Below are positions 57,970 to 62,307 of a DNA stretch of 64,000 nt, one piece after another. Positions within the stretch are counted from its first letter, which is position 1; each line of letters starts with the position of its first letter. The stretch is from positions 768,001-832,000 of the forward strand of contig CM000431.1 in NCBI GenBank assembly GCA_000165345.1, in the 5' to 3' direction. The translations under genes and the position numbers were made by a program. A model generated the notes under the pieces. The model worked only from the letters and a program-made list of their open reading frames with translations. It had not been told where the DNA came from and did not search any database.

Positions 57970-60900
57970 TTAATTGATATTTACTGAAGAGGAAAGTTTT
58001 TTGAATGTTTCCTCAGTCGGAGGTAAATTATTCTCTATGCAAAAATGGTAAAGTTTGCGTAATAGCTGGGCAGTATGAGAAATTGCTTGGAATTGTTTCT
58101 CTACGCCTCTAATTGAAAGAAGGCCTAAAACACTCATTCTCATGTGTTTCCCCATTGCCCTTCCAATACGATGCCTATTTAGTGCAAAAATTGTTGGAAT
58201 ATTTAATTCCTGAGCCTGTAAAAGAATATGTATTACATGGTGTCTAAGGCTTCCTTCTACTCCATCTCCCTCGATATCTGGAGCAACAATTAGAGCCTTT
58301 AGTTTTTTGTGTCTTAAGCATCTCATTGCTTCTCTAACTCCAACAGTGAATACTCTTCCTGGGAAGTTCTTTGTAGAGTTTGATAGGTTTGGGTTTGATT
58401 CATTGGTGCCTTCCTCAATACCGCCTAAAGCGTTCCCAGTATTCGAAATAGAAATAGCACTTCCATTAACAGTGATTGTATAGCCAGTTTCAATAGTGTT
58501 TTTGGAGTCAGAGATCTTCTGATTAGAGTCACCTTCTGAAGGAATAACACATGAATTACTAATTTTGTTTGACTTGAGATCAATCTGCAAGCCACTTCCA
58601 TTTTTACTATTAACAACAGTAGACATCCATCGAACGCGATCATCAATAGCTCTTAAAGTGTTTAATAGGATAGAGACGCTATGATCTAATGATGCCGTAA
58701 GTATCTGATTTACATAGTTTTGTGGTGACGCAACAGTTCTATGGCCAACTTTATGAGCAACAGCAAGTCTGATATTTTTATGTACAAAAGCTCCATTTTC
58801 TGGTTCTGACCAGTACGCACATTCAGATGGGTCAAATGATCTTGAAACAGCTTCTAGTGCGATATCATCTACTGCAACCATACAAAGATTATCGCCTTTA
58901 TTAACTTCACGAATTTTTCTGGCATCCACAGTATCTAAATAATGGTACATAACTCTAAGCCAATGAAGTCTACCAGAGTTATTCCTTAAAAATGATGAGA
59001 ATCTAGCGCATGTAATAATTTCATTGGCTCCATTCTTAGAATCAGTCAAATTTGAAGAGCCAGAGTTTGTGCCATTGTTATTCACGTCTGTATTACTTGA
59101 AGCAGAATTTGAGTTGCTGTGTTTGTTTCTATTGCTAAATCCGGTTCTACCGCCAGTCTTGCTCATTGCCTTTGCCCATAAAGCAGCAATTGAAGAGGGT
59201 GTAAGCCCATTTTGAGATGCGTCATTGCCAGAAGTATCAATAGAAGAGGCACTTAAACCACCAGCACAGGAGCTACTTCCAGCCGGAAAGTTGTTATGAA
59301 TGTTCATATTACCAAATCCTGCCATACCGCCTGTCATGTTTGAGTTACACGAATGAGAAGCATTGCTATTATTCTTGATATGATTAATGGCATTCTTCCG
59401 GCCATTCTTATTATAATAAGCATCCTCAGAAGTTTTTTTAGAGTAACCCTGATTGCTTAGACCAGAAATAGGAATATTGGACATACCAGAATAAGCCAAA
59501 TCATTCAGAGATCTTGAAACCCCATTACCAATCACTCCCATAGAACCACCACCAACACCCAATCCCAATTGATTTCCATTAAATGGAATAACTCCTGAGC
59601 CAGATTTCCTCCTAAACATATTTCCATTAATATGAGTAGGAATTGTACAATTGGGAGGGCAAGTCTTCCTACAGTACTGTAGTTGCCCTTGGTTAACCCC
59701 AACATATCCCTGATCATTCAGATTCTGAATGTTTAAACCAGAATTTAAAGGAATATTTGGCATGCTACCAGTTAAGCTACCACTGCTATTTTTCTTACCG
59801 GAACGGCTCGTATGACGTAACATATTAGATTCGCATCTAAGCATGTTGTTTTCATTATATAATATAGGTAAATTTCCACTTCGGTAAGTATTCGGTGCTC
59901 TTTGATTTGCTTCGAAATTCCCTAGATTCGGAGAAACACCATTACGCTGTTTCAACTGTTTTTGCTGTTTGTTACTCATATTAGAAGGAAATCCATATAA
60001 TTTCTGTTGGCCAAAATACTTGTGTCTAAGCTGTTGGCCACGGTTAATTAAATAATTATTATAGGGAACGTCACAGCCAAAGTCATCATTAAACTCATTC
60101 TTTTCAAAAATAGAAAGTTGTTGATGTTGCGGTTTCCAGTCAATAACTCCTTGGGAAGAAGAAAATTTGTATGGAGATGTATGTTGCCAATATGATTTTC
60201 CATCACCTCTAAATTCAACCTCGTCAATTCCCTGTAAAGAGCCTTCCATTCTGTAACCATTGCTGTCGTCCATCAATCTATTAAACATATTTTGGAATTG
60301 ACTTCCATTGCCGTCCATCTCAAATGGGCCTCCAATATCGCTGTTACTGAGAGCTGGATGAGACGAATGTCTACTCTCTATCCCATTAATGGAATCTCCG
60401 TATGAGATATAATTTCCTTTAATAGAAGGCGAAGTATCAATTCCACTTCTGCACATGTAATCAGTATTTGCAGATCCAGATCTTGATTTAAAACTACTAA
60501 CCAAACCTTCCGTCTGGTTATTCATGACACCCAATAATTGTGAATTGGATGATCCAAGTAATGCAAAGTGTCCTATTGAGGGATATATATCTTCTTCATC
60601 AATTATTAAAGGATTGGCTCCATTAGAACTAAAATTAGAATGAATAAGAGAATTACTTTTAGATGACCTTTTCATTCCATATGCGCCGCTGCTATTATTA
60701 CCTGCTAAACTGCAAGTGCTCCCTCCAACCCCAGTGCTACAACTACTACTCCCACTGCTACAGACGCTACCTCCAATGGCTCTCCTCCCTGATGCATTTA
60801 TACTTCCCATTATTGATGTGGGGTTTGATAAATTGGATGTAGAACCACTACTTTTTCTGAATCTTAGTTTCCCATTTGAATTAATTTCAGAAACAGAGTC

Positions 60901-62307
60901 TTCTAAAGGAATAGCGTTATCATCAAGTGGTATAGCATTCAAGTGTTTTGAATAACTACTCATACCTATTGCGCCTGTTGATAACTTGTCAAAATTCACT
61001 CCATTTGACCCTTGAATATCTGATATGTCATATGAGCTAAGGCTAATATTAGAGGAGTTTCTAAATCTCTGAGATAGAGCATCAGTAGAGTTGGCACTCT
61101 TGAGAGATGCACTTCCAGGAGTTGCCACGCCAGACAAAGATGATATCTCAGATGAAACGGTGGTAGTGTTGGTCATATTACAGGTCCCAAAGTCACCGTT
61201 TGCGAATCTCCTCTGAATATAGCTTTGGTGAGCTCTGTAACATTCTGTAGAATCTCTCTCTATGGAACCCACTTCATGAGAGAATCCATTTCCAATTATA
61301 GAGCCACTAGTTCCCGTATTACAATGGTCAATTTGGGGAAGAAATGCATCTACATTTGCATTAGCCCCATTATTATTAGTGCTCTTGTTGTTAATAGAGT
61401 TGGTATCAAATGTAGTACAATTAGTGTTAACATTACCATTATTCATATTACAATTGTTAATATAATTAGAGTAAGTACCCATTTTTAAAATTTGGTCATC
61501 CATACACATTGAATTGTATCTGCCTATTAGCCCTTGAATGCGTTGATCCGTATCAAATTCAGCCTGTTCATCATGGAAGGTATTGCCATTATTGTTACTG
61601 CAACTAGCCATTTTCATTATACCTCCTGCTGAACCCAAGTGAGAATTTTGTGAAAAGGAACCATTGTGGCATCTCGAATGCATAACGCTATTATTACTAT
61701 TATTAATATTATTATTATTATTATTATTATTATTATTATTATTCTTACTATTTCCCATACTATTTTGTTGTTGATAAGCACACACATCACTAAATGTATC
61801 AGAAGATCTACGGTTCATTGAACCATCCAAATCAAGATATGATTCTTCTGGACGACCAAAACTACGATTTCCAGAATGTCTAGATGTAATATTAAATCCT
61901 TGAAGCTCGTCAACGACATTGTTAGCGTGTTCCATTCGAATTCTATTTGATCTTTCCACAATATGACCAGAAACCCCAATTTTTGAAGGTGTTTCAATAT
62001 TCCTAATGCTGTTAAAATCGATAAGAGAACCATCCACAGCAGAAACCGTGATATTTGAATTTTTAATGTCACCAATTAGTGAGTCGCTTCTAGCATTTCT
62101 TGTATGTTGGGATTGCTGCTGGACAAGTTGTTGGCTACCTCTTGCACTTCCATTGCCATTATTATGCCCACTATTGCTATTATTATTATTATTGCTGTTG
62201 CCACTATAAGAGGTACCAATCTGTAGATAAGCTACTCCACTGTCCCTAGGAACGTCAAACAGCTCGCTTGCTAGTAGCTCAAAGTTATTATCTAGGAGGT
62301 TTTCCAT
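57970..62307 (-). CDS. SECIS-binding protein 2 (SBP2)-like protein: huge N/S/G-rich low-complexity N-terminal region with a C-terminal L7Ae-type RNA-binding domain
   Basis: The C-terminal GRVFTVGVREAMRCLRHKKLKALIVAPDIE...NIPTIFALNRHRIGRAMGKHMRMSVLGLLSIRGVEKQFQAI aligns with the SBP2 L7Ae region (LGLREVTKHMKLNKIKCVIISPNCE...NIPFVFALNRKALGRSLNKAVPVSVVGIFSYDGAQDQFHKM). The N-terminus contains N12 and S/G runs. Confidence 0.7.
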   Translation of the reverse strand: MENLLDNNFELLASELFDVPRDSGVAYLQIGTSYSGNSNNNNNSNSGHNNGNGSARGSQQLVQQQSQHTRNARSDSLIGDIKNSNITVSAVDGSLIDFNSIRNIETPSKIGVSGHIVERSNRIRMEHANNVVDELQGFNITSRHSGNRSFGRPEESYLDLDGSMNRRSSDTFSDVCAYQQQNSMGNSKNNNNNNNNNNNNINNSNNSVMHSRCHNGSFSQNSHLGSAGGIMKMASCSNNNGNTFHDEQAEFDTDQRIQGLIGRYNSMCMDDQILKMGTYSNYINNCNMNNGNVNTNCTTFDTNSINNKSTNNNGANANVDAFLPQIDHCNTGTSGSIIGNGFSHEVGSIERDSTECYRAHQSYIQRRFANGDFGTCNMTNTTTVSSEISSLSGVATPGSASLKSANSTDALSQRFRNSSNISLSSYDISDIQGSNGVNFDKLSTGAIGMSSYSKHLNAIPLDDNAIPLEDSVSEINSNGKLRFRKSSGSTSNLSNPTSIMGSINASGRRAIGGSVCSSGSSSCSTGVGGSTCSLAGNNSSGAYGMKRSSKSNSLIHSNFSSNGANPLIIDEEDIYPSIGHFALLGSSNSQLLGVMNNQTEGLVSSFKSRSGSANTDYMCRSGIDTSPSIKGNYISYGDSINGIESRHSSHPALSNSDIGGPFEMDGNGSQFQNMFNRLMDDSNGYRMEGSLQGIDEVEFRGDGKSYWQHTSPYKFSSSQGVIDWKPQHQQLSIFEKNEFNDDFGCDVPYNNYLINRGQQLRHKYFGQQKLYGFPSNMSNKQQKQLKQRNGVSPNLGNFEANQRAPNTYRSGNLPILYNENNMLRCESNMLRHTSRSGKKNSSGSLTGSMPNIPLNSGLNIQNLNDQGYVGVNQGQLQYCRKTCPPNCTIPTHINGNMFRRKSGSGVIPFNGNQLGLGVGGGSMGVIGNGVSRSLNDLAYSGMSNIPISGLSNQGYSKKTSEDAYYNKNGRKNAINHIKNNSNASHSCNSNMTGGMAGFGNMNIHNNFPAGSSSCAGGLSASSIDTSGNDASQNGLTPSSIAALWAKAMSKTGGRTGFSNRNKHSNSNSASSNTDVNNNGTNSGSSNLTDSKNGANEIITCARFSSFLRNNSGRLHWLRVMYHYLDTVDARKIREVNKGDNLCMVAVDDIALEAVSRSFDPSECAYWSEPENGAFVHKNIRLAVAHKVGHRTVASPQNYVNQILTASLDHSVSILLNTLRAIDDRVRWMSTVVNSKNGSGLQIDLKSNKISNSCVIPSEGDSNQKISDSKNTIETGYTITVNGSAISISNTGNALGGIEEGTNESNPNLSNSTKNFPGRVFTVGVREAMRCLRHKKLKALIVAPDIEGDGVEGSLRHHVIHILLQAQELNIPTIFALNRHRIGRAMGKHMRMSVLGLLSIRGVEKQFQAISHTAQLLRKLYHFCIENNLPPTEETFKKLSSSVNIN
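61700..61745 (-). repeat. (AAT)n trinucleotide repeat encoding a 12-residue poly-Asn run in the SBP2-like gene
   Basis: The plus strand reads attattattatt... for about 45 nt. Confidence 0.9.

Follow-up and report, generated by a model that had tools for sequence, protein, structure and literature searches.

A conserved, predicted RNA-binding protein of the SBP2 family in Cryptosporidium parvum, a species reported to lack selenoproteins

Gene and domain organization

A stretch of 64,000 nucleotides of Cryptosporidium parvum DNA (GCA_000165345.1, contig CM000431.1, positions 768,001 to 832,000 of the forward strand; hereafter the window, in whose coordinates all positions are given) carries on its minus strand a complete, intron-less gene for a protein of 1445 amino acids that almost certainly belongs to the family of SECIS-binding protein 2 (SBP2; SECIS, selenocysteine insertion sequence). 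The reading frame opens with ATG, ends with TAA and spans 1445 codons in the open reading frame (ORF) list; at the local base composition, the probability that 1445 successive codons escape a stop by chance is about 7e-48. The same 1445-residue gene is called in a second assembly, GCA_015245375.1 (C. parvum IOWA-ATCC; CP044420.1), with a protein 100% identical to that of the window. The protein is rich in serine (14.4%), asparagine (13.1%) and glycine (9.6%), and the ORF list and the identical second gene bear out the original prediction, made from the sequence alone, of a long S/N/G-rich reading frame with an N12 run at this locus.

The domain limits listed below were drawn from ortholog comparison, a Pfam search, phmmer searches of the Protein Data Bank (PDB), an alignment of 20 sequences that combines the C. 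parvum protein with homologs over trimmed C-terminal segments (alignment A1), and an AlphaFold2 (AF2) model built from A1 with its per-residue confidence (predicted local distance difference test, pLDDT).

57970..62307, minus strand: complete intron-less coding sequence, Cryptosporidium SBP2-family protein (assignment almost certain), 1445 amino acids plus TAA stop
59203..62307, minus strand: N-terminal S/N/G-rich low-complexity region, residues 1-1035, fast-evolving, with no Pfam match and low cross-species identity
61708..61743, minus strand: N12 homopolymer run, residues 189-200, length-polymorphic between C. parvum assemblies
59146..59202, minus strand: motif TPSSIAALWAKAMSKTGGR, residues 1036-1054 (ortholog sequences)
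58927..59016, minus strand: genus-conserved block ITCARFSSFLRNNSGRLHWLRVMYHYLDTV, residues 1098-1127 (ortholog comparison)
58738..58872, minus strand: block 'DDIxxE...CAYWSEPENG...AHKVGHR', residues 1146-1190, common to alveolate-type SBP2-like proteins (A1)
58621..58722, minus strand: long helix QNYVNQILTASLDHSVSILLNTLRAIDDRVRWMS, residues 1196-1229, aligned with human SBP2 630-663 (A1, phmmer; helix in the AF2 model)
58360..58617, minus strand: Cryptosporidium-specific low-complexity insertion of 86 residues inside the RNA-binding domain, residues 1231-1316 (A1 gap columns, pLDDT below 50)
58030..58359, minus strand: L7Ae-type core of the SBP2 subtype, predicted to bind kink-turns, residues 1317-1426 (Pfam, PDB phmmer, pLDDT 81-97)
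57970..58029, minus strand: short C-terminal tail NLPPTEETFKKLSSSVNIN and stop codon (sequence)

The sole Pfam match in the whole protein is PF01248 (Ribosomal_L7Ae; residues 1320-1395, E 4.9e-7, 29.8 bits against a cut-off of 22.1). The helix and the L7Ae core are separated by the 86-residue insertion, compared with about 10-15 residues in other SBP2 proteins (A1), and the identity of the insertion over four Cryptosporidium species is 0-20%.

Motif TPSSIAALWAKAMSKTGGR is identical in C. felis, C. bovis and C. xiaoi and has a single substitution (TPST) in C. muris, C. andersoni and C. serpentis; as matched by eye, it occupies the position where relatives have the core of the selenocysteine (Sec)-incorporation domain (SID) followed by a motif 'LW..F/A.K'. 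For the block ITCARFSSFLRNNSGRLHWLRVMYHYLDTV, no counterpart was found beyond Cryptosporidium.

The asparagine run has 12 residues (N12) in the window and in GCA_015245375.1, and 13 (N13) in GCA_048859185.1; the run is therefore a coding microsatellite of variable length. The copy of the protein in GCA_048859185.1 also carries the substitution G970S. Two short ORFs, at 61225-61488 on the plus strand and 61815-62075 on the minus strand, overlap the long coding sequence and were rejected as frame artefacts.

Relationship to SBP2 in sequence and fold

When the last 200 residues were searched against all PDB chains with phmmer, the best match was human SBP2 (7zjw_B, residues 671-779; E 1.4e-13) and the runner-up was an archaeal L7Ae (E 0.23); in this alignment, the C. 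parvum block NIPTIFALNRHRIGRA lines up with human NIPFVFALNRKALGRS. With the insertion removed, the alignment was continuous over human SBP2 630-779 (E 7.6e-17), and the next match was hSnu13 (E 0.28). The protein thus has both parts of the bipartite RNA-binding domain of the family, the N-terminal helix and the L7Ae core. The likeness to SBP2 had originally been placed in the C-terminal 110 residues or so; it holds for the L7Ae core, and its extent was set too small, for it takes in the whole RNA-binding domain and three motifs upstream of it.

The AF2 model has a pLDDT above 90 in the helix and core (range 87-93 in the helix and 81-97 in the core) and below 50 in the insertion. A Foldseek search of the PDB with this model returned as top match 7zjx_B, i.e. 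SBP2 bound to a SECIS on the ribosome (E 1.7e-7, 231 aligned columns, among them those of the helix); other L7Ae proteins cover only about 100 columns. A search of the PDB with the A1 profile is not independent support, as A1 includes a mammalian SBP2 row.

Four Cryptosporidium species were compared with 132 other SBP2-family domains at the 25 columns conserved to at least 75%. Twenty of these columns are kept in all four species, including (human numbering) G676, E679, P696, R731, G735, K740, S745 and G754 of the core and Y632, Q635, L649 and L652 of the helix. The changed columns are R630Q, R672V (with an adjacent R kept), V680A, G706S (in three of the four species) and D708R; the family motif GGLDD accordingly reads G(S/G)LRH, and the RFQDR region of human SBP2 reads RAIDDR in the C. 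parvum helix QNYVNQILTASLDHSVSILLNTLRAIDDRVRWMS. The C. parvum equivalents of the conserved kink-turn-contact positions are G1323-x-R-E1326, R1378, G1382, K1387 and S1392.

An ordinary housekeeping L7Ae protein that merely resembles SBP2 (ribosomal L7a or L30, NHP2, Snu13 or an Rpp38-like subunit) would also give the one generic Pfam match, PF01248, and would suit the name "ribosomal protein L7Ae domain-containing protein" that several orthologs bear in GenBank. Against this, the best matches to such proteins (eL8, eL30, NHP2, Snu13, Rpp38) lie at E 0.2-1, and SBP2 is ahead of every other L7Ae protein by 12-16 orders of magnitude in E-value; an alignable counterpart of the SBP2-specific helix precedes the core; the protein has 1445 residues and clade-specific SBP2 motifs, compared with 100-260 residues in housekeeping members; and C. 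parvum has an NHP2 of its own (PDB 2aif), which is a separate and weaker structural match. We regard a housekeeping protein as highly improbable. The choice of SBP2 over ribosomal L7Ae, L30e or NHP2 in the original prediction is upheld by sequence, fold and family-conserved residues alike, including the comparison of best matches that had been proposed as its check (E 1.4e-13 versus 0.23).

Orthologs, selection and synteny

A HMMER scan of residues 1098-1445 against 1.84 billion representative proteins gave 565 matches at E of 1e-3 or below, the top three of which were from C. felis (86% identity), C. bovis (80%) and C. muris (73%); the orthologs of C. xiaoi, C. andersoni and C. serpentis belong to the same clusters as these three. 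In GenBank the orthologs are called "ribosomal protein L7Ae domain-containing protein", except that those of C. bovis and C. xiaoi bear the name "SECIS binding pelota RNA binding domain containing". The likeness to SBP2 is hence not new, as the annotators already label the latter two orthologs SECIS-binding.

The identity of the proteins, and the proportions of nonsynonymous (pN) and synonymous (pS) sites that differ, were compared among C. parvum, C. felis, C. bovis and C. muris. The N-terminal 1040 residues or so are nearly unalignable (0-12% four-species identity per 40-residue bin; pN between species 0.28-0.58), and the four-species identity is 70-88% over residues 1161-1240 and 85-90% over residues 1321-1400. 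In the L7Ae core, pN is 0.013 for C. parvum and C. felis, 0.057 for C. parvum and C. bovis and 0.134 for C. parvum and C. muris; synonymous sites are saturated between species (pS 0.73-0.84). Strong purifying selection acts on the C-terminal 400 residues, on the RNA-binding module as well as on the upstream motifs.

The reading frame is intact in seven Cryptosporidium species, and the gene order is conserved in C. muris, where a diphthamide synthase gene, a 503-residue gene, the SBP2-like gene, a 931-residue gene and the gene for the alpha subunit of phenylalanyl-tRNA synthetase (PheRS alpha) follow one another, with Med31 further on.

A decaying, functionless relic of SBP2, left behind after the loss of selenoproteins, would fit the reported loss of the Sec trait, the loss of the SID core (see below), the large low-complexity expansion and the insertion inside the domain. 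Such a relic, however, is hardly to be reconciled with a frame that is intact in seven species, a pN of 0.013-0.15 in the RNA-binding domain at saturated pS, a domain with 85-90% identity among species that can scarcely be aligned in their N-terminal regions, and the synteny with C. muris, and we give it next to no weight.

Relatives outside the genus

The next-best matches after those of Cryptosporidium (E 1e-27 to 1e-15) were GC-rich proteins of 350-600 residues from marine metatranscriptomes and the Marine Microbial Eukaryote Transcriptome Sequencing Project (MMETSP). These marine homologs (P0004-P0055) have a block 'DDIxxE...D.DL.E.AYWSE/D...AHKxGxR', which corresponds to residues 1146-1190 of the Cryptosporidium protein, and two matched stretches were reported for the marine alveolate-type matches in the search of representative proteins. 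Many of them also have a motif 'LW..A/F.K' (e.g. 'ISLGELWAQSFKGK' and 'SELWMKFDQ') that, matched by eye, resembles TPSSIAALWAKAMSKTGGR.

Two side observations were made on the marine proteins. About 30 of the 150 best SBP2-family homologs, marine protist proteins of 350-600 residues (among P0005-P0143), begin with MG, and 25 of 35 MG-starting homologs have a cysteine at residues 3-20 (MGLCPSR, MGGSLCARR, MGxHCSKRN). This start looks like a signal for N-myristoylation and palmitoylation, which would be unexpected for an RNA-binding translation factor, and it does not occur in Cryptosporidium or Vitrella. Furthermore, one marine-homolog contig begins with CTCAAG, the six bases in which the dinoflagellate spliced leader ends, a match too short to count as evidence.

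A further homolog, P0113 (contig CDMY01000200), is from Vitrella brassicaformis, a free-living photosynthetic relative of apicomplexans, the accession prefix CDMY01 being that of this species (PMC4501334). P0113 reads 'MCYVSEPEPD' at the site of the Cryptosporidium 'CAYWSEPENG', has an S/A-rich insertion at the matching place in the domain, and is 38% identical in the L7Ae core. P0113 and a second Vitrella protein, P0103, have near-identical C-terminal SBP2 domains of about 190 residues and unrelated N-termini, with the SID core in only one of the two; the locus does not translate directly into the protein, so that introns are present, and the pair could have arisen by duplication, or could reflect a mis-join or two alternative models of a gene.

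In a neighbour-joining (NJ) tree of 138 RNA-binding domains, Cryptosporidium was placed near Vitrella and other protists and outside the metazoan 'FREYC' clade; the tree resolves shallow clades only, and the placement of Cryptosporidium, with a bootstrap of 28-33, is suggestive at most. The best reading of these comparisons is that the gene was inherited vertically from an alveolate/chromerid SBP2, and would thus be neither horizontally acquired nor an unrelated L7Ae protein.

The SID core and the question of selenocysteine

In mammalian SBP2, Sec incorporation needs the SID core, described as GKERExxKKKxxxLKKIILKERE (human G518-K529; PMC2746813). Of the 150 best homologs, 39 carry a recognisable form of this motif; they come from many lineages of eukaryotes and include Vitrella and some alveolate-type proteins. 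A hidden Markov model (HMM) built from these 39 motifs found no match in the seven Cryptosporidium orthologs at E values up to 100 with filters off.

Within the 64-kb window, no Rfam match to a SECIS or a tRNA-Sec was found, the sole tRNA being Gly-UCC; the window represents about 0.7% of the genome, taking the genome as about 9 Mb. In the literature, selenoproteins are reported to be absent from C. parvum (Lobanov et al. 2007, PMC2375036; table in PMC6254913), and so is the Sec insertion machinery (PMC7409322). The original prediction that the gene implies selenocysteine-insertion machinery is not supported, in view of the undetectable SID in seven orthologs, the window without tRNA-Sec or SECIS, and the reported absence.

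We therefore weighed a working SBP2, which would bind SECIS-like elements in a cryptic or highly divergent Sec system, or in another recoding system directed by UGA and the 3' untranslated region, that the surveys had missed. A complete SBP2 RNA-binding domain with clade-specific upstream motifs, all under strong purifying selection, would be expected of such a protein; organisms that make no selenoproteins have been reported to have no SBP-family proteins either (PMC2746813); and there is a precedent in Cyanidioschyzon merolae, which has Sec machinery genes and for which standard searches gave neither selenoprotein genes nor a tRNA-Sec (PMC2375036). On the other side stand the surveys, which report neither selenoproteins nor insertion machinery in C. 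parvum (PMC2375036, PMC7409322, PMC6254913), the undetectable SID core, and a window, about 0.7% of the genome, in which neither SECIS nor tRNA-Sec was recognised. We consider cryptic recoding unlikely, though less so than a relic or a housekeeping protein.

Proposed function

The explanation that we favour, with a probability of roughly 0.6, is that the gene is an ortholog of alveolate SBP2 that has maintained the kink-turn-binding module, has lost the SID core along with Sec, and now has a Sec-independent RNA-binding role. The alternative offered in the original prediction, a homolog that a Sec-less lineage has kept or repurposed, fits best with the data; the term paralog, which it had used, does not, as the gene appears to be an ortholog inherited from an alveolate/chromerid SBP2.

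According to the model, the long helix (residues 1196-1229) packs on the alpha/beta core (residues 1317-1426) and completes an RNA-binding domain of the SBP2 type. As the kink-turn-contact positions conserved in the family are retained in the core, the protein would most likely bind specifically to RNA with a kink-turn or a similar fold (tandem sheared G-A pairs). We infer that eEFSec is no longer recruited, because the SID core is undetectable and the genus is reported to be without selenoproteins and Sec machinery; the RNA- or ribosome-tethering half of SBP2 function has probably been kept or specialised. The protein might act in the post-transcriptional or translational control of kink-turn-bearing RNAs, or bind rRNA, and the disordered N-terminus of about 1000 residues may serve as a scaffolding or condensate-forming arm.

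Several points weigh against this explanation. The SID core is missing or unrecognisable also in many marine alveolate-type homologs, some of whose sequences are partial, and the SID is reported to be poorly conserved in Dictyostelium discoideum and in Plasmodium vivax, a Sec user (PMC2746813); because of the latter, loss of the SID does not prove loss of the Sec function. The three conserved upstream motifs are common to relatives that possibly use Sec, and could mean that interactions with Sec-decoding partners are still intact. The absence of tRNA-Sec, eEFSec, PSTK, SepSecS and SPS2 rests on published surveys, the primary one of 2007 (PMC2375036). Finally, two strongly conserved family positions are altered, D708 of the GGLDD motif to R, and R672 to V.

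SBP-family proteins are regarded as markers of Sec use, and a strongly constrained SBP2 ortholog throughout a reportedly Sec-free genus departs from that rule. The paradox appears undiscussed: a literature search found no paper on an SBP2 homolog in Cryptosporidium. New are the delimitation of the full, insertion-split SBP2 domain, the motifs shared with alveolate and chromerid proteins, the undetectable SID core, and the strong constraint in a reportedly Sec-free genus. Under the favoured explanation of a Sec-independent role, the gene would be a natural separation-of-function case that could show the job of the SBP2 RNA-binding module apart from Sec insertion, which bears on the role of SECISBP2L in animals; cryptic recoding, if true, would overturn the textbook statement that the genus is without Sec machinery and bring to light a system overlooked in an important pathogen of humans. 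Genetic modification of Cryptosporidium is possible, which makes either outcome testable now. The value of the observation is tempered by the annotation of sibling-species orthologs as SECIS-binding, and by a premise of Sec absence that is taken from the literature.

Neighbouring genes in the window

The window is AT-rich (27-38% G+C) and crowded with long, intron-less ORFs of eukaryotic type, including those for PheRS alpha, lipin, a GCN5-like acetyltransferase with a bromodomain, a kinase, and a CBF/Mak21 protein. The segment 58001-62000, which lies in the SBP2-family gene, has 36-38% G+C, compared with 27-35% over most of the window, despite its low-complexity asparagine and serine content. 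One RNA gene was found in the 64 kb:

51428-51500, minus strand: tRNA-Gly (UCC), between the 719-residue ORF and PheRS alpha

Near the SBP2-family gene, four ORFs were without a Pfam domain, at 53729-56620 (plus strand, 963 residues), 48979-51138 (minus strand, 719 residues), 45951-47075 (plus strand, 374 residues) and 44076-44834 (minus strand, 252 residues). By position, the C. muris counterparts of the first two are the 931-residue gene and a 535-residue gene, respectively.

Comparison with known systems

With the housekeeping proteins L7Ae, NHP2, Snu13, eL8 and eL30, the Cryptosporidium protein has in common the alpha/beta/alpha fold and the Pfam family PF01248; unlike it, these are small single-domain proteins without the N-terminal helix or the upstream motifs, and match only at E 0.2-1.

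Human SBP2 (PDB 7ZJW/7ZJX) is the best structural match, with the same bipartite RNA-binding domain (helix at about human 630-663 and L7Ae core at 671-779) and with G676, E679, R731, G735, K740, S745 and G754 conserved. Proteins of the SBP2 family typically have an N-terminal extension that varies and is poorly conserved (PMC2746813), and the Cryptosporidium protein has one too. Unlike human SBP2, the Cryptosporidium protein has no detectable SID core ('LKKIILKE'), carries the 86-residue insertion, reads G(S/G)LRH for GGLDD and RAIDDR for RFQDR, and has an S/N/G-rich N-terminus of about 1040 residues in a lineage reported to be without selenoproteins.

The SBP2-like proteins of marine protists are 31-37% identical to the Cryptosporidium protein over the trimmed C-terminal segments of A1. 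The alveolate and chromerid proteins share with it the block 'DDI..E...AYWSE/D ... AHKxGxR', many of them together with 'LW..A/F.K', and Vitrella in addition has an insertion inside the domain and 'CYVSEPEPD'. In contrast to Cryptosporidium, the SID core is kept in Vitrella and some of the marine homologs, and the alveolate and chromerid homologs are 2-4 times shorter and have an intact GGLDD, about 30 of the marine ones with an MG(x)C start.

SECISBP2L differs in being the product of a metazoan-specific duplication (a vertebrate/deuterostome paralog) that retains the SID, and the NJ tree, whose deep nodes are weakly supported, sets Cryptosporidium outside the metazoan clade. SECISBP2L, which also belongs to the SBP2 family and whose part in Sec insertion is weak or uncertain (PMC2746813), offers a useful analogy for a relative of SBP2 with another job.

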